The notes under the pieces are model-generated. The model saw only the letters and a program-made list of their open reading frames with translations. It did not search any database and was not told the DNA's origin. Made by a program: the position numbers and the translations under genes. Shown here piece by piece: positions 1,975 to 31,791 of a stretch of DNA of 64,000 nt. Source of the stretch: Candidatus Kerfeldbacteria bacterium (GTDB taxonomy: Bacteria; Patescibacteriota; Patescibacteriia; SBBC01; CAIJZX01); NCBI GenBank assembly GCA_016193315.1, contig JACPSJ010000001.1, positions 471,478 to 535,477 of the forward strand, written 5' to 3'. The first letter of the stretch is position 1. Each line of letters begins with the position of its first letter.

Positions 1975-4692
1975 ATGGCCTGGCTCAGCAAGTTATTTGG
2001 TGATGCCAACCAGCGGGCACTGCAATCGCTCAGTCCGCTGGTGGTGGAAATTAACGCTTGGCGAACGAAGTTAAAATCCTGGCCTGATGACCGCCTGGCC
2101 GGGAGGATGCAGGAGTTACGCCAAGCCGTGGCCGGGGATGCTCGTCGGCTGGATTCATTCCTGCCCGAAGTTTTTGCCCTCGTGCGCGACGCCAGTCGTC
2201 GGGCGCTGAAACAAGAGCACTTTGATGTCCAGCTGCAGGGCGGGATCGTTCTCCACCGCGGGGCCATCGCCGAAATGAAGACGGGCGAAGGAAAAACATT
2301 GGTGGCCACGGCGCCGGTGGCGCTCAACGCGCTGACCGGACAGGGAGTGCATGTGGTGACGGTGAATGACTATCTCGCCCGGCGGGATGCCGGCTGGATG
2401 GGTCAGGTCTATCATCTGCTCGGGCTGTCGGTCGGAGTGATTATTCATGAGCAGGCTTTTCGTTTCGACCCCACCTTCATCGACCCGAACGCCCTGGAGG
2501 AGCGGACCGCACACCTCCGACCCGTGACGCGGCCGGAAGCCTACCAAGCGGACATTACCTACGGGACGAACAATGAGTTCGGCTTCGATTACCTGCGTGA
2601 CAACATGGTACCCGACCGCCGCTACCTCGTGCAGCGACCGTTTGCCTACGCCATCATTGACGAGGTTGATAGCATTCTCATCGATGAAGCCCGGACACCG
2701 CTGATTATCTCCGCTCCGGCTGAGGAGTCTTCAGAGCGGTATCGTAAGTTTGCTCAATTGGTAACGCAGCTCGAAGCCGAGACTGATTACTTGGTCGACG
2801 AAAAAATGCGGGCCGCGACCTTAACCGAAGCTGGCATCGCGCGAGTCGAACGAAGCTTGGGTCTCGACAATATTTACACCGCTGGCGGCATTGAGCTGGT
2901 CCATCACCTCGAGCAAGCGCTGAAAGCCAAGACGCTTTTTCAACGCGACCGTGACTACGTTGTCCGGGAAGGCGAAGTCGTTATCGTCGACGAGTTCACC
3001 GGACGACTGATGTTCGGTCGGCGGTATTCCGAAGGGTTACACCAGGCGATCGAGGCCAAGGAGGGCTTGTCGGTCAAACAGGAGAGTCAAACGCTGGCCA
3101 CCATTTCACTGCAGAACCTTTTTCGGCTCTACCCGAAACTGGCCGGAATGACCGGCACAGCCGCCACCGAAGCTGAGGAGTTCCATAAGATTTATAACCT
3201 CGATGTCGCGGTGGTGCTAACCCACCGTCCAATGGTCCGCCGCGACTTGCCCGACAGCGTCTATAAAAACCAGCAGGGGAAGTTCCTGGCGGTCGTCCGG
3301 GAAGTCAAACGGCGACACACGGCCGGCCAGCCGATTCTCCTCGGCACCATCTCCATCGAAAAAAATGAACTCCTCAGCGAACTATTGCGTCGGGAGGGGA
3401 TTAGTCATGAAATTCTCCATGCCAAGAATCACGAGCGCGAAGCGCAAATTATCGCTCAAGCCGGTCGCTACGGCGCCGTCACCCTGGCCACTAATATCGC
3501 CGGCCGCGGCGTTGACATTATCCTCGGCGGCTCATCGACCGAGCCGGCCGAAGCCGAGCGGGTGAGGGGGGCCGGCGGTCTCCACGTCATCGGTACTGAG
3601 CGACATGAATCGCGGCGGATTGATAACCAGCTGCGCGGTCGCTCCGGGCGCCAAGGCGATCCTGGATCAAGCCAATTCTTCGTCTCGATGGAAGATGATC
3701 TGATGCGAATTTTTGGGTCTGACCGGATGAAGCGCATGATGGATCGGCTGGGCGTACCAGATGACATGCCGATCGAGAGTCAGCTGGTTTCCAAGTCGAT
3801 CGAACAAGCGCAGAAGAAGGTGGAGGGTCACAACTTCGACATTCGCAAACACTTGGTGGAGTACGATGACGTGATGAACAAGCACCGCGAAGTGATTTAC
3901 AAGCGTCGACGAGAAATTCTGCTGGCGGCGGGATCGGACGTCGAGCGGCGGGTGGAGGAAATGGTGGAGAAGGAAATGAGTCAAATCGTGTCCTTCCACA
4001 CCGCGGCGGAGACGGAAAGTACCTGGGATCTCGACGCCATGTACAATGCGGTCGAAGCGATCGGCCTAGTCGGTCTCAAAGGACGGTTGAAACTCGAGGA
4101 TTTCCGCGATCAAGCCGGCGACCAAGCCCACGACGCGCAGGCGCGAACGGCCATGGTCGGCTTTTTAATGACCGAAGCTAGGTCAAGGCTTGAAGCCCTT
4201 CGTCGTCAGGCTCCAGACCCCAAAGTATGGTCAGAGGTGGTGCGCAACGTCATCCTGCGGACCATTGATCAATTGTGGGTCGAACATCTTGACCTGATGG
4301 AACGGCTGCGCGAGGGGATTGGCCTCCGCGGTTACGGCCAAAAAGATCCGTTGGTGGAGTACAAAAAGGAAGCCTTCGATATCTTTACGCAACTGATCAA
4401 CTCCACCAACTCCCAGGTAGTGCAGACTGTATTCCGCCTGGCCTTCAGTGCTAGCGAGGCCGGACCAACTCCGGCCGAGCGACCACAACTCGTATTTTCG
4501 GCGCCGCAAAAGGAAGCCAGCCAAGCCAGAAGTCAAAGCCCGTTTGTGGCCGCCCGGCCGGTTGTCGGCGGCGTCGATTTAGCCAAGGTGGGACGCAACG
4601 ACCCTTGTCCTTGTGGCTCTGGCAAAAAATTCAAGAAGTGCTACTTAGCCAACAGCCCAGACTGCCGGATTTTGCATCCCGCGCCAGCTTGA
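1975..4692 (+). CDS. secA: Preprotein translocase ATPase SecA
   Basis: 905-aa ORF with canonical SecA N-terminus, DEAD-like motor motifs and the C-terminal zinc finger CPCGSGKKFKKC. Confidence 0.95.
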   Translation: MAWLSKLFGDANQRALQSLSPLVVEINAWRTKLKSWPDDRLAGRMQELRQAVAGDARRLDSFLPEVFALVRDASRRALKQEHFDVQLQGGIVLHRGAIAEMKTGEGKTLVATAPVALNALTGQGVHVVTVNDYLARRDAGWMGQVYHLLGLSVGVIIHEQAFRFDPTFIDPNALEERTAHLRPVTRPEAYQADITYGTNNEFGFDYLRDNMVPDRRYLVQRPFAYAIIDEVDSILIDEARTPLIISAPAEESSERYRKFAQLVTQLEAETDYLVDEKMRAATLTEAGIARVERSLGLDNIYTAGGIELVHHLEQALKAKTLFQRDRDYVVREGEVVIVDEFTGRLMFGRRYSEGLHQAIEAKEGLSVKQESQTLATISLQNLFRLYPKLAGMTGTAATEAEEFHKIYNLDVAVVLTHRPMVRRDLPDSVYKNQQGKFLAVVREVKRRHTAGQPILLGTISIEKNELLSELLRREGISHEILHAKNHEREAQIIAQAGRYGAVTLATNIAGRGVDIILGGSSTEPAEAERVRGAGGLHVIGTERHESRRIDNQLRGRSGRQGDPGSSQFFVSMEDDLMRIFGSDRMKRMMDRLGVPDDMPIESQLVSKSIEQAQKKVEGHNFDIRKHLVEYDDVMNKHREVIYKRRREILLAAGSDVERRVEEMVEKEMSQIVSFHTAAETESTWDLDAMYNAVEAIGLVGLKGRLKLEDFRDQAGDQAHDAQARTAMVGFLMTEARSRLEALRRQAPDPKVWSEVVRNVILRTIDQLWVEHLDLMERLREGIGLRGYGQKDPLVEYKKEAFDIFTQLINSTNSQVVQTVFRLAFSASEAGPTPAERPQLVFSAPQKEASQARSQSPFVAARPVVGGVDLAKVGRNDPCPCGSGKKFKKCYLANSPDCRILHPAPA

Positions 4693-20837: not shown

Positions 20838-21481
20838 TCCGACATCTCTGGTTTGATTTCAGCGAGACGATCGTGGTGCTCAGGCAGGAACGGCATGATC
20901 GCTTGCGCTATGAATCGTATGCGGCAGTAGTTCATCAGCCGGTCACCGATGCGCTGATGGCGGAATATAACCAACTATATAAAGTACATAAACAAAGTAA
21001 TGCGGCCGTTTTTCGATCGTTAGGATTGCCGGGGAGTTATTGGTCGGGCCGAGTCAACTCCGTAGCCCCGCTAGAACTGTATCAACTAGCCGACCCGAGT
21101 ATTCCTTCAGTTCTTGAAGATTTGAAAGAGTTGTTACCAATCTCCATCTTCTCGAATATCAAGCTCGAAAGCATCCTCCCGTCCTTTAGAATTAGTCCAT
21201 TATGGTTTACCAACATCCTGTCTGCCGGGATGGTCAAGGAGCCAAAACCGGCCCTTGACGGCTTCAAGAAAATGGTGGAGTTATCTCGCTGCCAACCAGC
21301 CGAAATCCTGTACATCGGTGATGACATTGAGAAGGATGTACGCCCGGCCAAGCAGGTTGGGATTCGAGCTGGATTGATGTGGCATCACTCTCCAGAGGCA
21401 GACTTTCAGTTTGAAAGGTTTTCTGATATGCTGTCGCTGGTGAAATCATTACCTGCCTCTCCGCGGGCGGCAAACCCATGA
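20834..21481 (+). CDS. HAD-superfamily hydrolase
   Basis: Begins with a DxS-type motif I (HLWFDFSETIV). C-terminal YIGDDIEKDVRPAKQVGIRAGLMW (motif III/IV). Confidence 0.7.
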   Translation: MIRHLWFDFSETIVVLRQERHDRLRYESYAAVVHQPVTDALMAEYNQLYKVHKQSNAAVFRSLGLPGSYWSGRVNSVAPLELYQLADPSIPSVLEDLKELLPISIFSNIKLESILPSFRISPLWFTNILSAGMVKEPKPALDGFKKMVELSRCQPAEILYIGDDIEKDVRPAKQVGIRAGLMWHHSPEADFQFERFSDMLSLVKSLPASPRAANP

Positions 21482-21873
21482 GCGCTATTTCGCTTTGGCT
21501 CGTCCTCCACCTGAGCGGTGCGGCACTAGTGGCCGCCCTCATCATCGCGGCGGTGATCGCCCTGCTCCACAGGCGTCGCCAGTGGTACCGACCAGTCGCA
21601 TTTGGCTTGGCGATTCTGGTTGGGTGGCAACTCACCACCGGCGCTTGGCTTTCCCTTCTCTCCACTCATTCACCTTCGCTCGGTGCTTACTGTCGTAATA
21701 TTGGGCTCTACCTGCTCGTCATCGCGGCCACTTTATTCTGCCTGTACCGACGCATGCAGGTGGAGCGGTTGAAACGATTCCCCCTGCCTTTGACTTTGGC
21801 CAGCGGGGGAATCGGGATACTGGTCGCGGTGTTGGCGGCCTTGTCAATATTCGGAAAACTGGCTAGACTATAA
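21478..21873 (+). CDS. Small polytopic membrane protein
   Basis: 131-aa ORF with four hydrophobic segments. ATGA overlap with the HAD gene. Confidence 0.5.
   Translation: MSAISLWLVLHLSGAALVAALIIAAVIALLHRRRQWYRPVAFGLAILVGWQLTTGAWLSLLSTHSPSLGAYCRNIGLYLLVIAATLFCLYRRMQVERLKRFPLPLTLASGGIGILVAVLAALSIFGKLARL
21841..21869 (+). promoter_or_regulatory. Putative promoter for the metK leader (TTGTCA-N17-TAGACT)
   Basis: ttgtca 21841-21846, 17-nt spacer, tagact 21864-21869, placed just before the riboswitch start. Confidence 0.35.
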
Positions 21874-22080: not shown

Positions 22081-23151
22081 ATGCATCTGCCGCCGGTCTA
22101 CACGGTTGAGTCGGTCACCAGTGGTCATCCCGACAAGGTTTGCGACCAGATTTCGGACGCCATTCTCGACGCCTGCCTGGCGCAAGACCCGTATTCCCGG
22201 GTAGCCGTAGAAACGTTCGGCGCCCACGGCCAACTGATGATTGGCGGCGAGGTGACGACCACCGCGGACGTTGATTACGCCGCCATTGCCCGCCACGTGT
22301 ACCACCACATCGGCTACGGCGACGGGATCGACATCAACGTTCACGTTTCCTCCCAGTCGCCCGACATCGCCCGGGGTGTCGATGCCGGTGGCGCCGGCGA
22401 TCAAGGAATCATGTATGGCTTTGCGACCGATGAAACACCCGAAGGACTGCCCGCCGGCGTCGTTCTTGTCCATCGCCTGACCAAGGGCTTAGAGAATCTG
22501 CGCCGACATGACCAGCGCTTTTCCTTCCTTGGCCCTGACGGCAAGGCCCAAGTGAGTATTGAGCGTCGGGGCGTGAGCGCGGTGGTCGTCAGCGCGCAGC
22601 ATAACCAAGGGGTGACGCTGGAGGAACTCCGACGAGCATTATCTGATCATTTGGTCGAACCAGTGATCGATAGTCTTGACGGTGTGGGGGCCCATATCAA
22701 TCCGGCCGGGGCCTGGCACCGGGGGGGATTCGCCGCCGACACCGGACTGACTGGGCGGAAAATCATGGTCGATACCTACGGCGGAATTATCCCGCACGGC
22801 GGTGGGGCGTTTTCCGGCAAAGACGCCACCAAGGTTGATCGCTCCGGGGCCTACATGGCCCGTTTCGTGGCCAAGCAGATAGTGGCCAAAGGGTTGGCCA
22901 GACAATGTTTGGTGTCAGTGGCCTATGCCATCGGAAAAGCGGAGCCGGTAATGGTCGCAGCCACAGACGAAAATGGTCGAGACATTTCAGCCCACGCTCG
23001 GCAATTCGATTTTCGGCCCCAGGCTATTATTGAACGGCTCGGACTACGCCAGCCGATCTTCCAGCAGACTGCTGCGTACGGCCATTTTGTCGTATTAGTG
23101 TGCAGCCGTTGGTTCCACAACTACAGAAGCTGCCGCGCCGAACGGTCCTGA
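22081..23151 (+). CDS. metK: S-adenosylmethionine synthetase MetK
   Basis: ESVTSGHPDKVCDQISDAILDA ... GGGAFSGKD ... TAAYGHF motifs. The C-terminus after GHF is shorter than and divergent from E. coli MetK. Confidence 0.9.
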   Translation: MHLPPVYTVESVTSGHPDKVCDQISDAILDACLAQDPYSRVAVETFGAHGQLMIGGEVTTTADVDYAAIARHVYHHIGYGDGIDINVHVSSQSPDIARGVDAGGAGDQGIMYGFATDETPEGLPAGVVLVHRLTKGLENLRRHDQRFSFLGPDGKAQVSIERRGVSAVVVSAQHNQGVTLEELRRALSDHLVEPVIDSLDGVGAHINPAGAWHRGGFAADTGLTGRKIMVDTYGGIIPHGGGAFSGKDATKVDRSGAYMARFVAKQIVAKGLARQCLVSVAYAIGKAEPVMVAATDENGRDISAHARQFDFRPQAIIERLGLRQPIFQQTAAYGHFVVLVCSRWFHNYRSCRAERS

Positions 23152-23261
23152 CCATCACCGCCCTCGGCTCGCCACGGTTAGTCCTGGCACGGGTTCTACC
23201 GTCACTCTTCGGGACGGCCTACGGTACCAAGTTCAAGGTCTTCAAACCCCGGCCGAAAGTC

Positions 23262-23606
23262 ATGATGATTGGTCGCCTGGTCTGCGCTTACCCTGACGGA
23301 CTGAGTAAACCGATGTCCAAGTGGACTATCGTTAGCGATCTTGAAGTATCACATTTTGTCACCGCTAAGGACTTGATTCAAAAGAACCCGCAATTGCCAG
23401 TCCGGGTAACCAAACGACCGGCTAGCACGTACGCCGTCATCCGGCACATTGGTCCATACGCCAAGGAAGGTCCGACGATCAAACGGCTTCATGAATACAT
23501 GAAAGCAAACCACCTGAAGATCATCGGGCCGCACGAAGAAGTCTACCTGACCCGGCCCGGCCCGAAAGCGAAGACGATTATACGCTACGCCGTCCAGAAG
23601 CGATGA
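23262..23606 (+). CDS. GyrI-like (AraC effector-binding/SOUL fold) small-molecule-binding domain protein; start uncertain (tracked ORF begins at GTG 23100)
   Basis: C-terminal segment YAVIRHIGPYAKEGPTIKRLHEYMKANHLKIIGPHEEVYL matches the GyrI-like half-domain. Confidence 0.4.
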   Translation: MMIGRLVCAYPDGLSKPMSKWTIVSDLEVSHFVTAKDLIQKNPQLPVRVTKRPASTYAVIRHIGPYAKEGPTIKRLHEYMKANHLKIIGPHEEVYLTRPGPKAKTIIRYAVQKR

Positions 23607-24031
23607 ACCAAACACGGTCGCTAGCCACCGTCGCCATCTACTTCGCTAGCCTCGGCATTTTGCTGTCCGGGTATCTATCATATCAAACGCTGTTCGCGCC
23701 CATCGGCTGCTCACAAGCGCTGATCACCTGTGGCGGCACGCCGGTGGAGTTCTTCGGGATACCGCAATGCGTCCTAGGTTTTATCATGTTCTTGGCCGCG
23801 GCCATTGTCTCAATCTTAATCTTGGAATCGATGCGACCGGCGCCATGGTTGTCCATCCAGCTCTGGTTGAGCCTGGCCGGGACACTGTTTGCCGCCGGTC
23901 TGTCGGTTTATGAACTGTGGCTCCGTCAACCGGCGCCGACCACTATGCCGTCATGCGTCTATGGGTTCTTTCTGTATCTTGGTGTTCTGATCGCCACGAT
24001 CCTGGCTCGACGTCAGGAGGTGAGAGCATAA
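23603..24031 (+). CDS. 4-TM membrane protein, paralog 1 of a tandem triplet (contains Cx6C loop motif)
   Basis: 142 aa, four hydrophobic helices. CSQALITCGG. C-terminus ARRQEVRA shared with the two downstream paralogs. Confidence 0.6.
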   Translation: MNQTRSLATVAIYFASLGILLSGYLSYQTLFAPIGCSQALITCGGTPVEFFGIPQCVLGFIMFLAAAIVSILILESMRPAPWLSIQLWLSLAGTLFAAGLSVYELWLRQPAPTTMPSCVYGFFLYLGVLIATILARRQEVRA

Positions 24032-24396
24032 AATCTCTAGGGAAAACCATCGGCTATGGTCTGCTGTTGATCCCGATTTGGTTTTTGACGCTGTTCGTAC
24101 GGTCGATCATCTACGCCAGCGAACAGCCAATTGACTTTATCAGTGCCAATATTATTGCGGCGGTGGTAATGGCGGGTGCAACCTGGTGGCTGGGGCGGAA
24201 GATGAGGCTGGCCACGAAGACTGACACTGGTCTGGTCGGTATGGTATGGGTGGTAACCGTGGTCGTGGTCCTGGTCGTGGTGGCCTTTGGGAATCGAACG
24301 CCAGGGATCGTCTTTAGCAATTGGTCAGTGTACCTGACCTACGTTGGCATCTTAGTTGGCACCTTCTTAGCCCGACGAAAGGAGGTGAAAGCATGA
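24028..24396 (+). CDS. 4-TM membrane protein, paralog 2; apparent non-canonical ATA start (or start-codon-mutated pseudogene)
   Basis: Homologous to paralog 3 from the first codon (IKSLGKTIGYGLLL vs MKYPGKIISYGLLL). Same GGAGGTGA SD context. ATA at 24028 sits exactly where paralog 3 has ATG. Confidence 0.5.
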   Translation: MKSLGKTIGYGLLLIPIWFLTLFVRSIIYASEQPIDFISANIIAAVVMAGATWWLGRKMRLATKTDTGLVGMVWVVTVVVVLVVVAFGNRTPGIVFSNWSVYLTYVGILVGTFLARRKEVKA

Positions 24397-24809
24397 AATA
24401 TCCAGGAAAAATTATCAGTTACGGACTGCTACTATTTCTTGTCTGGCTGCTGTCGTCATACGTTTCTGCCTTGGCGACCGGGACGCAGGGGCAGGGTCCG
24501 CCTGAGGTTGACTTCAACTCCCGGCCGTTAGTGATCTCCGGCGTTAGCATCGCCCTGCTCATGGCTGGCGCAGCTTATTGGTTCAGCCGTAATCTCCATC
24601 TGCCCACGAAACGCGATGCGCTCATCACGAGCGTGTGGTGGATTGTGATCGTGGTGGCGTTGCAGATCTTGGTGATGTGGCCGTATCAAACAACGCCGGC
24701 ACTCTTCAGTGCCTGGGCGATGTACTTTCCCTATCTGGGCATTGTCTCCGCGGCGACGCTTGGTGTTCAAAAGACGAACCCTGTTTCCACGCAAAATCCG
24801 TATCCCTGA
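24393..24809 (+). CDS. 4-TM membrane protein, paralog 3
   Basis: ATG preceded by GGAGGTGA. Four hydrophobic helices. Overlaps the upstream paralog as gcATGAaa. Confidence 0.6.
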   Translation: MKYPGKIISYGLLLFLVWLLSSYVSALATGTQGQGPPEVDFNSRPLVISGVSIALLMAGAAYWFSRNLHLPTKRDALITSVWWIVIVVALQILVMWPYQTTPALFSAWAMYFPYLGIVSAATLGVQKTNPVSTQNPYP

Positions 24810-24989
24810 ACTAGGGCTCCTCAGCCAGACTAGGAGAAGTCGATGTTTATGGGCCGGCGGCGCTGAACCCCAAGGTTTGCGAAGTATCAGCAACTTGACA
24901 GCATCTTGCGCTTGTGCTGCGGTTTTTTTATAATCCAATTTAACCACTCGAATTTACGAATTTTTAGCTTATTCCTTAACCCTCGCCAT

Positions 24990-25772
24990 ATGAAACACAC
25001 TTCTATAGGAGTAGCCATTAGCCTGGCCGCGTTGGCAGTGTTCGCATTTGCCACCGCGGCTTCAGCCAATCACAGCTGGGGTCCGCCGTACCACTGGGCC
25101 AGGACGAGTAACCCGTTCACCCTTAAGGTTGGCGATAACGTTTCATCTAGCTGGGATTTTTATTTAGACACCGCGATCGCTGATTGGAGCCAGTCGAGTG
25201 TTCTCGACATGACGAAGGTGGCTGGCGGCACGCGACCAAAGACTTGCCGCCCGACTGCTGGTCGGGTTGAAAGCTGCAGCGCGAGGTATGGCAACACCGG
25301 CTGGCTCGGCATCGCCCAGATCTGGATCACCGGCGGCGAACACATCACCCAAGGCGTGGTGAAAGTCAACGACTATTACTTCAGCCAGCCATACTATAAT
25401 ACCGCCGGTTGGCGAAGTTTGGTGATGTGCCAGGAGCCTGGTCATACCCTAGGCCTTGGCCACCAGGACGAGAATTTCAACAACGACCCGATTCAGCCGC
25501 ACACCTGCATGGATTATTTCATCCCGGAGGCAAATGAAATTGTCCATCCGAACCAGCATGACTACGAGCAGCTGGAAGACATCTACAGCCACCTCGATAC
25601 CACCACCACGATTAGTCAAGCGGCTACCAGCCCGAGGTCATGGCAGTCAGCCCAGGCACCGCGCGAGTGGGGTCGAGAAATCCACCGTTCGCCTGATGGT
25701 CAGGCTTCAGTCTTCGTTCGTGATCTCGGTCTCGGTCGGAGGATTGTAACGCACGTCTTCTGGGCGGAATAA
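24990..25772 (+). CDS. Secreted zincin-like metallopeptidase-like protein with a degenerate QExxHxxGxxH motif
   Basis: Signal peptide MKHTSIGVAISLAALAVFAFATAASA. Motif CQEPGHTLGLGHQDE resembles the astacin/serralysin/snapalysin HExxHxxGxxH with the first His replaced by Gln. Confidence 0.55.
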   Translation: MKHTSIGVAISLAALAVFAFATAASANHSWGPPYHWARTSNPFTLKVGDNVSSSWDFYLDTAIADWSQSSVLDMTKVAGGTRPKTCRPTAGRVESCSARYGNTGWLGIAQIWITGGEHITQGVVKVNDYYFSQPYYNTAGWRSLVMCQEPGHTLGLGHQDENFNNDPIQPHTCMDYFIPEANEIVHPNQHDYEQLEDIYSHLDTTTTISQAATSPRSWQSAQAPREWGREIHRSPDGQASVFVRDLGLGRRIVTHVFWAE

Positions 25773-25797
25773 CGCTTCTGAGCTGAACAGTAGAGAA

Positions 25798-25830
25798 AGA
25801 ACACCCCGCTGGGGTGTTCTTTCGGTTTTT
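25798..25830. terminator. Rho-independent terminator (possibly bidirectional)
   Basis: agaacacccc-gctg-ggggtgttct 10-bp stem followed by ttcggttttt. Lies between convergent genes. Confidence 0.7.
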
Positions 25831-26396: not shown

Positions 26397-26664
26397 GGTA
26401 CACCTCCTATCCGAAGTTCAACAGTGGCAGAGTACAGCAGTACCGATTCAGGCCGAGGCTAGCAACAAGAAGTACAAAAGTCAAGTGCCGCTCCGGATCG
26501 ACATAATAATTATCTTGAACAACGTAGCAGGCTGATGGCAGCCGTTACTCCGCCACTACCGGGCGATCTGGGCGAGACACAGCCTGGCTCACCTCATCTC
26601 TTGTGCCCCTTCCGCCAACGCTGGTATACTCTGTGTACAATGATAATCAATTAGGTTTTTGGCC

Positions 26665-27522
26665 ATGAAGACGGTATTTTTCGCCTCGCTACTGGCCCTC
26701 CTCGCTTGGACGCAAGCCTCGGCCCAGCCGGCTTACTATTTTCAATTTTTTAATTTCGAAACCAACAATTACACCGAATCCTTCCCTTTCGGCCATTCCA
26801 ACGAGGTCGTCGTCGCCAGCCAGGGGCAGGACGTTCGGCAGCAACTGCCGATCGACTTGTCAATGTCGGTCAATGGTCAGCAAAGATGGACGTCAACTAT
26901 TGCCAACAACCCGACCCAGAACTGCCGCGGCGCGGATGGCTGCTCCACCCGCGGGCCAGTGACGGATGATCCCGGCGCGACTGCTTTCGTCGAGCTGACC
27001 GCCAAGGGTAAGGACGGTCAGACCATCGCCACTTACACCCGTGGCAACCGACCGACAAACACAGCGGTTACCAACCAGCCGACGACTTCAACAAACCGGA
27101 CCACCACCACGAACCGGACGACACCAGCCACGCCGACCACGTCAACAACCAATCGCACCACGGTCACTACCCAGCCGACGTCCACCAGCCAACAAGCGGA
27201 CACGAGCTGGCACCGGCGATGGTGGGAGGTTGGTTTCTGGGTCGGGATTTTCTGGCTCTTCCCCTGGGTCTTTGTCGGCTGGCAATGGACCAGATACAGG
27301 TTCTGGGGTTTTGGCTGGCCGTGGCCATGGTGGTTCTGGATTCCGCTGTGGTGGTTTATCCCGTGGTTTATCATCGGCTGGATCTGGTGGCTTGACTGGT
27401 GGCCGTGGTGGATGTGGTGGTGGTGGCTGTTCCCCTGGATTTTCTGGCTGTTCTGGTGGATTATCCTGTTCAAAGAAGCCATGATCTGGCATTGGCGCCA
27501 GAACCAAAGCGGGAACAGATGA
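26665..27522 (+). CDS. Secreted protein with Thr-rich linker and extraordinarily tryptophan-rich hydrophobic C-terminal region
   Basis: Signal peptide MKTVFFASLLALLAWTQASAQP. Linker TNRTTTTNRTTPATPTTSTTNRTTVTT. Final 104 aa contain 34 Trp (WPWPWWFWIPLWWFIPWFIIGWIWWLDWWPWWMWWWW ...). Confidence 0.6.
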   Translation: MKTVFFASLLALLAWTQASAQPAYYFQFFNFETNNYTESFPFGHSNEVVVASQGQDVRQQLPIDLSMSVNGQQRWTSTIANNPTQNCRGADGCSTRGPVTDDPGATAFVELTAKGKDGQTIATYTRGNRPTNTAVTNQPTTSTNRTTTTNRTTPATPTTSTTNRTTVTTQPTSTSQQADTSWHRRWWEVGFWVGIFWLFPWVFVGWQWTRYRFWGFGWPWPWWFWIPLWWFIPWFIIGWIWWLDWWPWWMWWWWLFPWIFWLFWWIILFKEAMIWHWRQNQSGNR

Positions 27523-30060: not shown

Positions 30061-31791
30061 ATGATGCATAGTCCGCAGCGCATTCTCAGGGTTGGTCTCC
30101 GCCGGGGAATCTTGGGTGTCGTCAGCTTGGGGGCACTACTTCTACTGGCAGTGGCCAGCCAGCTCGAAACCGTTCAGGCCGCGGCGTTCACCGTTAACAG
30201 TACAACCGATAGCGTGGACATCAGCCCCGGTGACGGCGCCTGTGCTGATAGTGCTGGCGATTGTTCCCTCCGCGCGGCCATTATGGAGACCAACGCGCTT
30301 CCAGGGGCCGACAGTATTACCCTGCCCGCGGGCACGTACACGATCAGCATGGCCGGAATCGGCGAGGACGCTGCTCTGAGCGGCGATCTTGATATTTCCG
30401 ACGACTTGATTGTTTCCGGCGCTGGTGCGGCCGCCAGCCTGGTTGACGGGGGCGCGATCGACCGGGTGTTTGAAATACGTCCAGGGGCGACAGTCCATCT
30501 CCGTTGGCTACGCACGCAGAACGGCGACCCGGTGGCCAATGCCGGCGGCATCCTCAATCATGGGGACCTAACCCTTACTCGCGTTACAGTCACTAACAAT
30601 ACTGGACAGAATTTTGGCGGTGGCATCGCCAACTTCGGGACGATGTCAATTGGGTATTCAACCATCAGCCACAACGACACGGTCGGTGCTAATCTGAGTG
30701 GCGGCGGAGGCGGGATCTACAATGAAGGCACGTTGACCATAACGGGTAGCACCCTAAATGATAACACCACACTTGGACGCGGTGGAGCTATCTATAACCT
30801 TGATCAAACGCTGACGTTGACTAATAGCACGCTCAGTACCAACACGGCCCTAAACGGCGGGGGCATTTTCAACCGCTTCGGAACTGTCACCAGCACCCAT
30901 CTCACCATTACTAACAACACGGCGACCGACAATGGCGGCGGCGTTTGGAACTTCGGCGGAACAATGTCATTGGGCAATACTGTCATCAGTGGGAACAGCG
31001 CCGCCACGGCTGCAGACGATTGCGCCGGCGCGATCACGTCCCTCGGATATAATCTGGCCAGCGATGCCTCCTGCGGGCTTGGCGGAACCGGCGACCTCAA
31101 CAGTACGAACCCCATGCTGGGGCCATTGGCCAACAACAGCGGTCCGACCTTCACGCACGCGCTGCTCACTGGTAGCCCAGCAATTGATGCCGTTCCCCTG
31201 ATCGCCTGCACCGTCAGCACTGATCAACGCGGCGTCCCCAGGCCGATGGGTCCAGCCTGCGATATGGGCGCGTTCGAACGAGTGGTGCCGGAGGCCTGTA
31301 ATAACGTAGCCTTTGACACCATCATTGTTGGCACGGCTGGAAATAATACACTGAACGGCGGAAATGGCCGCGACTTGATCTTCGGCCTAGGCGGTAATGA
31401 CGTGTTGAACGGCAGTAATAATGACGACTGTCTGGTCGGCGGCTCCGGCCACGATCGCCTCAATGCCAGTAATGGCAATGACTACCTTGATGGCGAGGCG
31501 GGTAATGATCGACTGCACGCCAGCAACGGTAACGACACCCTGGTTGGCGGGGACGGCCGCGATGCGCTCAGCGGCAGCAATGGGATTGATCACCTTGACG
31601 GTGGCCTGGGAAACGACACCCTCTCCGGAGGGAACGGTGATGACGTCCTGGATGGCCATGACGGCGACGACCGGTTGTTCGGAGACAACGGCTACGACAC
31701 GCTGAGTGGCGGCGCCGGTACGGACAGGCTCGACGGTGGACTGGGCATAGATTCCTGCATTGGTGAGATCGAACTGTCCTGCGAGATATAG
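30061..31791 (+). CDS. Secreted CSLREA-domain / right-handed beta-helix protein with C-terminal RTX-type calcium-binding repeats
   Basis: Signal peptide. CSLRAAI motif (CSLREA N-terminal domain). Repeated NxxGGGI beta-helix turns. Tandem GGxGxDxL nonapeptides (GGNGRDLIFGLGGNDVLNGSNNDD ...) at the C-terminus. Confidence 0.75.
   Translation: MMHSPQRILRVGLRRGILGVVSLGALLLLAVASQLETVQAAAFTVNSTTDSVDISPGDGACADSAGDCSLRAAIMETNALPGADSITLPAGTYTISMAGIGEDAALSGDLDISDDLIVSGAGAAASLVDGGAIDRVFEIRPGATVHLRWLRTQNGDPVANAGGILNHGDLTLTRVTVTNNTGQNFGGGIANFGTMSIGYSTISHNDTVGANLSGGGGGIYNEGTLTITGSTLNDNTTLGRGGAIYNLDQTLTLTNSTLSTNTALNGGGIFNRFGTVTSTHLTITNNTATDNGGGVWNFGGTMSLGNTVISGNSAATAADDCAGAITSLGYNLASDASCGLGGTGDLNSTNPMLGPLANNSGPTFTHALLTGSPAIDAVPLIACTVSTDQRGVPRPMGPACDMGAFERVVPEACNNVAFDTIIVGTAGNNTLNGGNGRDLIFGLGGNDVLNGSNNDDCLVGGSGHDRLNASNGNDYLDGEAGNDRLHASNGNDTLVGGDGRDALSGSNGIDHLDGGLGNDTLSGGNGDDVLDGHDGDDRLFGDNGYDTLSGGAGTDRLDGGLGIDSCIGEIELSCEI

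Follow-up and report, generated by a model that had tools for sequence, protein, structure and literature searches.

We analyzed three consecutive genes in a 64-kb stretch of DNA (here called the window, meaning the whole stretch that was analyzed) from a Candidatus Kerfeldbacteria metagenome-assembled genome (MAG) of the candidate phyla radiation (CPR; Patescibacteria). The three open reading frames (ORFs), HYY50_02655, HYY50_02660, and HYY50_02665, hereafter genes 1, 2, and 3, are the 3' part of a four-gene chain that encodes, in order, a GyrI-like protein, a protein related to VKOR (vitamin K epoxide reductase), plus two members, P2 and P3, of a membrane protein family denoted the P family. 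Taken as a whole, we consider it probable that gene 1 is a VKOR-like variant, that genes 2 and 3 are old paralogs, that the C-terminal tail shared by genes 1 and 2 is a Shine-Dalgarno (SD) sequence in translation, and that the proteins have the roles proposed below. The chain and its two SD-bearing junctions are composed as follows; TM denotes transmembrane, aa amino acids, and AF2 AlphaFold2.

23100..23606, + strand: gene for a GyrI-like small-molecule-binding protein, first in the overlapping chain (Pfam GyrI-like, E=1.9e-11)
23603..24031, + strand: gene 1 (HYY50_02655), 142-aa membrane protein of the VKOR superfamily that lacks a CXXC, four TM helices (Pfam VKOR, AF2, Foldseek)
24016..24031, + strand: junction 1, with SD GGAGGTGA at 24016-24023, spacer GAGC, and ATAA at 24028-24031
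24028..24396, + strand: gene 2 (HYY50_02660), 4-TM member of the P family, P2 type, 122 codons if ATA is taken as the start (P-family profile)
24381..24396, + strand: junction 2, with SD GGAGGTGA at 24381-24388, spacer AAGC, and ATGA at 24393-24396
24393..24809, + strand: gene 3 (HYY50_02665), 138-aa 4-TM member of the P family, P3 type (P-family profile, AF2)

A preliminary description of this DNA, made from its letters alone, had reported three ORFs of about 140 aa each for small 4-TM membrane proteins, joined by coupled ATGA/ATAA junctions in an SD context. Three consecutive + strand ORFs were indeed found (23603-24031, 24028-24396, and 24393-24809), they form a translationally coupled chain, and genes 1 and 3 were modelled with four TM helices. 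The stated length fits genes 1 and 3 (142 and 138 aa) but not gene 2, which has 122 codons and is annotated with 109 aa. All three junctions of the chain are 4-nt overlaps. The TGA stop of the GyrI-like gene overlaps the ATG of gene 1 (ATGA, 23603-23606); at the ATAA of junction 1, the ATA start of gene 2 occupies 24028-24030 and the TAA stop of gene 1 occupies 24029-24031; and at junction 2 the ATG of gene 3 overlaps the TGA stop of gene 2 (ATGA, 24393). The overlaps and the SD with its 4-nt spacer are thus present at both junctions, but the ATAA contains no canonical start codon. The identification of the upstream gene as GyrI-like was also correct, as was the cysteine content: genes 2 and 3 are Cys-free, and gene 1 carries CSQALITC (C36-x6-C43).

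GC content across the region is even (0.52-0.60), and no tRNA or Rfam feature was matched there. Origin as a foreign island was rejected on these grounds. We found no mobile-element genes or repeats flanking the genes and no phage genes adjoining the locus.

Families of the three genes

We compared the three proteins with each other by pairwise alignment. The alignment of gene 2 with gene 3 is full-length, at 32% identity (E=6e-16), whereas the similarity of gene 1 to gene 2 is limited to the last 21 residues (BLASTP E=2e-6) and no similarity was found between gene 1 and gene 3. When the profile of the VKOR-like family was aligned to that of the P family with hhalign, the probability (Prob) was 10%, and TM-versus-TM controls from unrelated families gave a background of 0.4-22%. 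Because the profile match lies at TM background and pairwise similarity is absent beyond the tail, gene 1 is not a paralog of genes 2 and 3. Genes 2 and 3 themselves are true but ancient paralogs. The earlier statement that the three genes are paralogs of unknown family thus applies to genes 2 and 3 alone, as gene 1 falls into the VKOR superfamily.

The placement of gene 1 in a Patescibacteria clade of the VKOR superfamily is based on its predicted fold and the sequence of TM1-TM3. The AF2 model of gene 1 has four helices, with a predicted local distance difference test score (pLDDT) of 87.8 and a predicted TM-score (pTM) of 0.80. In a Foldseek search of the PDB, its five best matches were all Synechococcus VKOR (TMq 0.64-0.71, prob 1.00), and a search of PDB sequences with the clade profile also found Synechococcus VKOR (3KP9). 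The Pfam VKOR family (PF07884) was matched by 23/23 aligned relatives (E<0.01), and five of eight relatives that were rescanned singly exceeded its gathering score (29.3-41 bits). The match in the clade always spans profile positions ~2-114 of 134, which correspond to TM1-TM3, and never covers TM4. These results bear out the hint of VKOR that had been seen in the Cx6C motif of gene 1. Sub-threshold matches to DsbB (PF02600) were observed in 8/23 clade members (E >= 1e-3, best 1.2e-3). One clade member has already been named "vitamin K epoxide reductase family protein" by NCBI. The clade was found in Kerfeldbacteria, other Parcubacteria-type MAGs, Saccharibacteria, Roizmanbacteria, and Dojkabacteria, and a few of its MAG records are labelled "uncultured Gammaproteobacteria". 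Since the CXXC and the loop Ser, two defining catalytic features of VKOR, are both missing, we file gene 1 in a variant clade and not as a canonical VKOR. A literature search of the searchable library yielded no description of CXXC-less or half-size VKORs.

The P family was defined with a profile hidden Markov model (HMM) built from 46 members. An exhaustive profile search of 1.84 billion proteins uncovered 58 representative P-family clusters at E<=1e-3; the members are ~110-150 aa long, and one named member comes from a Parcubacteria MAG. The HMM, which includes both genes, matches gene 2 with E=1.8e-42 and gene 3 with E=1.1e-39. Its members share a conserved GYGLLL close to the N-terminus, and TM2 is followed by a basic cytoplasmic loop; the hallmark of the family is a conserved outer-loop motif (T)IPN(G)TT..FG.W.YL ahead of TM4. 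The conserved columns G11, T100, F105, and Y111 (gene-3 numbering) are present in both genes 2 and 3. In the AF2 model of gene 3 (pLDDT 91.4), helices span residues 4-29, 44-68, 73-98, and 108-123. Lys- and Arg-rich (K/R-rich) segments were found at the N-terminus and in loop 2 of both genes, and also at the C-terminus of gene 2. This K/R distribution is that of an N-in/C-in topology, and the 4-TM family is Cys-free.

No significant relatives of the P family were found in Pfam, NCBIfam, PHROGs, or PDB sequences, and the fold of gene 3 had no significant match in the PDB or BFVD. Weak matches to DUF7937, YesK, and RnfA were rejected as TM noise. An internal repeat was not detected in the family (hhalign Prob 0.6%), and a profile search (A3) of metagenome contigs found no further P-family loci. 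Genes 2 and 3 are therefore members of an undescribed orphan family.

We then analyzed the relatives of the two genes; comparison loci are cited by L numbers and single P-family relatives by P numbers. The nearest relatives of gene 2 are P0102 (74%), P0103 (60%), and P0044 (56%), while those of gene 3 are P0041-P0043 (59-64% identity), and the two genes fall in different P subfamilies. When copy number was checked, the P gene was single in 6/6 related contigs. Its contexts varied: it was observed behind GluRS (L005), behind MazG (L006), and among other small membrane genes (L012, L014). In L010, a P2 ortholog lies straight behind a GyrI-like gene with an ATGA overlap and no VKOR-like gene; the GyrI-like protein of the window is 54% identical to this GyrI-like protein directly ahead of the gene-2 ortholog. 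In L015, a P gene lies behind a VKOR-like gene that is 71% identical to gene 1. Because genes 2 and 3 belong to different subfamilies, and their relatives are single-copy in varied contexts, the pair in the window is a juxtaposition of old paralogs and not a local amplification. The proposal of local amplification does not fit two genes that are only 32% identical and that each have closer orthologs elsewhere.

A recent tandem duplication that joined the body of gene 3 to the tail of gene 1 was also considered as the origin of gene 2. It was ruled out by the orthologs that gene 2 has of its own (56-74%), and the native FLA(R/H)xR ending of these orthologs also opposes it. A general functional link between VKOR-like and P-family genes was likewise rejected, as 0/21 GTDB loci with a VKOR-like gene have a P gene within 3 kb. 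The adjacency was found only in the window and L015, and the P genes there are 34% identical. P2 and P3 may have come to lie behind the VKOR-like gene through a lineage-specific rearrangement, and the arrangement would not be an obligate functional link. The two proteins could form a homo- or hetero-oligomeric small membrane complex, at a best guess a channel or transporter for small solutes or else an accessory unit of the envelope.

A second orphan family, denoted the Q family, was found beside P genes. It comprises membrane proteins of ~100 aa with the pattern GKWS ... K(Q/N)RERS ... GE.F.PEH. Pfam gave no match to it, and the window contains no member. Q genes follow the P gene in L006, L012/L013, L014, and L015. 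Q-family genes were located at the following positions.

L006: ~4456-4530
L012: 4652-4975 and 5407-5706
L014: 4981-5618
L015: 1306-1584
L016: 2360-2680

In L012, the Q and P genes adjoin a gene for a DUF2214-like membrane protein (4103-4537). A 131-aa membrane protein encoded upstream of metK in the window (21478-21873) is weakly similar to this protein, at 28% over 89 aa (E=0.002).

The start of gene 2 and the shared tail

At 24028, the window and four independent Logan assemblies read ATA; the gene-2 orthologs P0102, P0103, and P0044 have ATG exactly at this position, at the head of MR(S/N/H)PGK..GYGLLL. The change from ATG to ATA (G-to-A) turns the stop of gene 1 from TGA into TAA and is silent for gene 1. 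Gene callers and NCBI place the start of gene 2 at TTG 24067, which gives 109 aa. The 13 codons between ATA and TTG, however, are as conserved relative to the orthologs as the rest of the protein. An SD lies 4 nt ahead of the ATA and none lies ahead of TTG 24067, and a start at this TTG would drop the invariant K..GK..GYGLL segment and half of TM1. The annotated start is probably wrong by 13 codons. The most likely course suggested by these features is that ribosomes, having terminated on gene 1, would re-initiate at AUA with the help of the SD and translate gene 2 weakly. A programmed -1 frameshift that fuses genes 1 and 2 was considered, the gene-2 frame being open for 37 codons upstream, and was rejected as there is no slippery heptamer before the stop.

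It is possible, if unlikely, that gene 2 is instead a recent pseudogene, or that it yields only a truncated 109-aa product from TTG 24067, so that the functional unit would consist of the VKOR-like protein and P3. Such a loss would account for the ATA in all five assemblies where all orthologs have ATG, the G-to-A change would not have been selected against in gene 1, and the TTG is the start chosen by gene callers and NCBI. However, the ORF is intact over 122 codons, and its ratio of nonsynonymous to synonymous substitution rates (dN/dS) against the orthologs is 0.12-0.25, the same as that of gene 3; because dS is saturated, this is still compatible with a very recent loss. The perfect SD before the ATA, the lack of one before the TTG, and the loss of a family-invariant segment and half of TM1 that the TTG start would entail also speak against this reading. 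We favor re-initiation at AUA and regard gene 2 as apparently still under constraint.

All three proteins had been thought to end in a common ARR(Q/K)EV(R/K)A motif. The motif was found in genes 1 and 2 only, and gene 3 ends in ...LGVQKTNPVSTQNPYP, a native Pro/Thr/Ser-rich tail without ARR..EV. The DNA ahead of P genes provides an explanation for the tail. We found GGAGGTGA or GGGGGTGA, followed by four nucleotides and ATG, ahead of the P genes in the window (twice), L005, L010, L012, L014, and L015. One exception was observed among the P genes inspected, in L006, where the SD is no more than a weak aaaGGGG. It makes no difference to the pattern whether the SD is intergenic (L005, L012, L014) or lies inside the upstream ORF (the window twice, L010, L015). 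Among the ATGA-type overlaps of the window, GGAGGTGA occurs at the two junctions before P genes only.

With the frame fixed by the ATGA overlap, xAG-GAG-GTG-Axx-xxA-TGA reads (Q/K/S)-E-V-(R/K)-x-stop. Junction 1 accordingly reads ..QEVRA* in the frame of gene 1, and junction 2 reads ..KEVKA* in the frame of gene 2. Upstream proteins elsewhere show the same relation to a following P gene: the VKOR-like protein of L015 ends in ARRSEVRQ* ahead of its P gene, and the GyrI-like protein of L010, which precedes a P2 ortholog, has an extra SGVKP* past the point where the GyrI-like protein of the window stops. Where no P gene lies downstream, the tails of VKOR-like proteins are different and longer. 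The A-R-R ending is native to both the VKOR-like clade (..LARRAQP.., ..LARRQGV..) and the P2 subfamily (FLARAR.., FLAHRR..), and we interpret it as the ordinary positive-inside end of the last TM helix. A P gene that abuts the preceding ORF by ATGA would thereby have its SD translated as x-E-V-x-x-stop. Because P genes carry GGAGGTGA-N4-ATG and the overlap fixes the reading frame, the shared ARR(Q/K)EV(R/K)A tail is read here as the SD of the downstream P gene in the upstream frame and not as a family signature. The tail and the coupling are then features of ordinary translational coupling. More generally, short C-terminal "motifs" common to adjacent coupled genes can be translated SD sequences, and such motifs should be treated with caution.

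We think it unlikely that the junction DNA was physically copied instead, a segment with the TM4-ARR codons, the SD, and the first ~13 P codons having been transferred by duplication, gene conversion, or cassette-like recombination, with P genes then moving or swapping behind other genes as SD-plus-ORF cassettes. Junctions 1 and 2 are identical at 54/73 nt, as against ~35% further upstream, and the identity extends to the Ala-Arg-Arg codons, whose sequence is not set by the SD. The VKOR-like genes of the window and L015 are 71% identical and the P genes behind them only 34%, as would be expected from replacement at the same junction, and the P2 ortholog of L010 follows a GyrI-like gene with the same junction type. 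However, LARR and FLA(R/H)xR endings occur natively in the two upstream families without any P gene, the similarity of the 5' coding parts can be explained by ordinary family conservation, and neither flanking repeats, mobile-element genes, nor a shift in GC content marks the segment. Translation of the SD in the upstream frame is therefore preferred as the source of the shared tail.

Cysteines and putative role of the gene 1 clade

To describe the cysteines of the clade we took a census of 42 sequences, comprising 32 distinct four-TM members and 10 half-size members. No CxxC was found (0/42). C36, C43, C56, and C118 are invariant in 32/32 four-TM members, as are P116, G121, Y103, and E104. 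The outer-loop pair C36/C43 is present in 42/42 sequences, spaced as Cx6C or, in some members, as Cx9C; alignments differ on its exact equivalence to the canonical loop pair. C56 (G-I-P-Q-C56) lies at the start of TM2 and C118 (M-P-S-C118) at the start of TM4, both at the outer end and two residues past a Pro, and TM4 opens with (M/L)-P-(A/S)-C118-V-Y-G121 in the clade. In human VKOR numbering, C43, C51, S57, C132, and C135 have been treated as fully conserved across VKORs (PMC4555120). The positions aligned to the loop Ser/Thr (human S57) are the invariant G44 and G45, and the clade alignment contains no conserved Ser or Thr between C43 and P54.

An internal repeat was detected in the clade. 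The TM1-TM2 half aligned with the TM3-TM4 half in hhalign with Prob 97.7% (P=2e-12; TM-versus-TM controls, 0.4-22%), and C56 was aligned to C118. Against this alignment's score of 60.8, 100 column shuffles scored 11.4 +/- 2.7 (max 20.9) and the reversed target scored 13.7. Half 1 matched the first half of Synechococcus VKOR with Prob 92.7%, while half 2 matched canonical TM3-4 with Prob 0.4%, in a comparison whose power is low because the target is a single sequence; the similarity of half 2 to half 1 is far greater than its similarity to canonical TM3-4. C56 and C118 occupy equivalent positions in the two homologous 2-TM halves. In the gene 1 model, DSSP assigns bridge residues at 53-54 and 115-116, just ahead of the Cys-bearing helices, which is compatible with C56 and C118 being neighbors.

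Half-size relatives were found in ten GTDB loci. These 80-aa proteins have two TM helices and consist of TM1, the Cx6C loop, and a "LPACVYGFFMYL" helix, and they match Pfam VKOR positions 2-80. The loci (L028-L037; for example L030 3004-3240 and L028 3001-3246) are from Saccharibacteria, Roizmanbacteria, and Dojkabacteria MAGs, and in most cases the gene directly upstream encodes a Crp/FNR-type regulator. Only tentatively do we entertain that the clade is an undescribed VKOR-superfamily class made of two homologous 2-TM modules, with a catalytic C56-C118 disulfide between pseudo-symmetric Cys at the outer ends of TM2 and TM4 in place of a CXXC, and with 80-aa forms that would act as homodimers. 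The clade as a whole would then be a relic of, or a reversion to, the symmetric ancestor of VKOR, and in quinone-poor CPR cells it might use a non-canonical electron acceptor. Leads to an acceptor in the CXXC-less clade are the recurrent GyrI-like neighbor and an overlapping flavodoxin gene in L016.

The genome context of the VKOR-like gene was examined in 24 loci, covering 89 ORFs within two genes of it. DsbA-like Thioredoxin_4/DSBA proteins with CPxC are encoded 1-2 genes upstream in L020, L021, L022, and L027, and a DsbA-like gene lies ~3 kb away in L007. A GyrI-like gene is directly downstream of the VKOR-like gene in L020 (3546-4040) and L022 (3406-3915) and upstream of it in the window (23100-23606). 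The order in L020 and L022 is DsbA-like, VKOR-like, GyrI-like, with a NUDIX gene between the first two in L022. The adjacency of GyrI-like and VKOR-like genes in three lineages suggests a recurrent functional link. In L016 (1479-2350), a 4-nt overlap joins a VKOR-like gene of 63% identity to a flavodoxin gene, and a Q-family membrane gene comes next; the flavodoxin is a possible hint of an electron partner. Adjacency of VKOR to MdbA-like oxidoreductases has been reported in CPR, in which disulfide formation is thought to use MdbA-like oxidases and VKOR (PMC6744442). Gene 1 would, on this evidence, be a membrane thiol-disulfide oxidoreductase acting like VKOR/DsbB, with electrons passing from a DsbA/MdbA-like exported oxidase to C36/C43, then to the C56-C118 disulfide, and finally to a membrane acceptor.

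The main alternative to the VKOR/DsbB-like role is metal handling, in which the CXXC-less clade would consist of Cys-based membrane proteins for binding or transfer of metal (Cu/Hg-type), or of components of a reductive pathway, and would not recycle DsbA. We rate it as quite improbable. It is suggested by the neighbors of the half-size forms, among which are genes for CsoR-type repressors (3), HMA domains (3), Cu-type P-type ATPases (2), cupredoxin (2), and DsbD-type proteins (2-4), L028 and L031 included. It also fits L009, where the VKOR-like gene lies behind ArsR-Thioredoxin_3-ArsP_1, and the missing VKOR catalytic CXXC and loop Ser. On the other hand, the four-TM forms closest to gene 1 adjoin DsbA-like CPxC proteins in 4-5 loci, the conserved loop Cys pair and the Cys at the N-termini of helices are arranged as in a disulfide relay, and the fold has no precedent with a metal-binding motif. 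We therefore retain the VKOR/DsbB-like role for gene 1.

Several observations weigh against the explanation as a whole. The match of gene 1 itself to PF07884 (22.5 bits) is under the gathering score of 27.5 and spans residues 11-105 only, and the register of TM4 relative to the canonical CXXC is uncertain, as two alignments disagree. The neighbors of the half-size forms could point to copper handling rather than DsbA recycling. Among 64 non-overlapping ORFs >=70 aa in the 64-kb window, a set obtained by simple longest-ORF selection that dropped gene 2, none holds a CxxC and hence no DsbA/Trx-like partner was found; because of this, the redox partner would not be encoded nearby. CPR bacteria are generally held to be without respiratory quinone synthesis. 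ATA is a poor initiator and gene 2 may be silent, and a copied segment is a possible source of the nucleotide identity between the junctions.

That the three genes are locally amplified tandem paralogs of one unknown 4-TM family, with the ARR motif as its signature and a holin-, immunity-, or transporter-subunit-like role, is very improbable: all three are 4-TM proteins of ~120-140 aa in a coupled row, genes 2 and 3 are homologous, and genes 1 and 2 have a common 21-aa tail, but gene 1 is VKOR-like and matches neither gene 3 nor the P profile above background, gene 3 lacks the motif, the closer orthologs of genes 2 and 3 are single-copy in other contexts, and the holin idea finds no support in PHROGs (no consistent match) or BFVD (none at E<=0.001, the first holin being at rank 32 with E=3.7).

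The gene 1 clade lacks two features deemed universal in VKOR (CXXC and loop Ser; PMC4555120), yet it has kept four invariant Cys. Should it prove active, the range of chemistry and architecture known for de novo disulfide generators would be widened, with a bearing on how VKOR/DsbB-type enzymes evolved. P and Q are small orphan families of CPR membrane proteins that are now defined well enough for testing.

Other features of the window and comparison with known systems

The window differs from all four Logan assemblies at 23089/23090, where 120 bp are missing (compare L001 3368-3487) in otherwise 100% identical sequence; L003 starts inside this segment and shows the downstream junction only. 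The missing 120 bp contain the genuine 3' end of metK (..AAYGHFGKPGLPWEQ*), together with the spacer that precedes the GyrI-like gene. Because they are missing, the metK ORF of the window runs to 23151 with an aberrant C-terminus. Either the MAG was misassembled here or the gap is a genuine deletion variant.

Next after gene 3, a secreted protein is encoded at 24990-25772. Its metzincin-like motif carries Gln in place of the first His (CQEPGHTLGLGH), its mature part contains four Cys, and it had no Pfam or NCBIfam match. It may be a disulfide-bonded substrate or a pseudo-protease. Homology of this QExxHxxGxxH protein to a Matrixin-like neighbor of the VKOR-like gene in L023 was rejected, as only the motif matches. 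The gene is followed by a good terminator hairpin at 25795-25823. The Cys counts of the 64 window ORFs are mostly 0-2; the exceptions, at 24906-25769 and 30061-31788 (10 Cys), are exported. A further protein of 287 aa (26659-27522) has a signal peptide, a Thr/Asn-rich linker, and an exceptionally Trp-rich hydrophobic C-terminal third (..WWEVGFWVGIFWLFPWVFVGWQW..WWPWWMWWWWLFPWIFW..), and no family match was found for it.

Among known systems, gene 1 is most readily compared with bacterial VKOR (Synechococcus, 3KP9/4NV5; the actinobacterial VKOR that re-oxidises MdbA; PF07884). Both have a four-TM bundle with the N-terminus inside, an alignable TM1-loop-TM2-TM3, a Cys pair in the first outer loop, and G-x-P opening TM2. 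Relatives of both adjoin DsbA/MdbA-like oxidoreductases (L020, L021, L022, and L027 for the clade; PMC6744442 for VKOR in CPR). In contrast to VKOR, the clade lacks the canonical CXXC at the start of TM4 and the conserved loop Ser/Thr. Where TM2 begins it has an additional invariant Cys, and where TM4 begins it has just one Cys; it also includes free-standing 80-aa half-proteins and has no fused thioredoxin (Trx) domain. DsbB, a four-TM quinone-linked disulfide generator, would be a functional analogue, but its loop-1 CXXC and second Cys pair in loop 2 are not present in the gene 1 clade.

In CcdA/DsbD, the redox Cys pair comes from two TM helices at equivalent positions of an internal repeat, and each Cys is preceded by Pro. 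Gene 1 resembles this arrangement in having Pro-x-Cys on two repeat-equivalent helices, which is a functional analogy only, as there is no relationship in sequence or fold. The CcdA repeats are inverted 3-TM units and electrons cross the membrane, whereas the repeats of gene 1 are parallel 2-TM units and all Cys lie at the outer face. A preprint (bioRxiv 10.64898/2026.03.05.709764) reports that MauE, a small multi-TM protein with a non-CXXC motif (CXC), can replace DsbB. MauE belongs to another family (DoxX/MauE-type), and no sequence match to it was seen here.

Genes 2 and 3 resemble paired small 4-TM transporters (paired small multidrug resistance (PSMR) proteins, e.g. EbrAB; Fluc/CrcB) in being adjacent, coupled, homologous, and ~120-140 aa long. 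They differ in having no sequence, Pfam, or fold match to these transporters, and their relatives usually carry one P gene. In a test for dual topology, genes 2 and 3 were found to have the same K/R bias (N-in/C-in), and because of this common distribution they would not form an antiparallel pair. The junctions at 24016-24031 and 24381-24396 have the same arrangement as known ATGA translational coupling with an SD inside the upstream ORF. They depart from standard coupling in that one junction has ATA in place of ATG, and in that the strong SD is specific to P genes and not general for overlaps.

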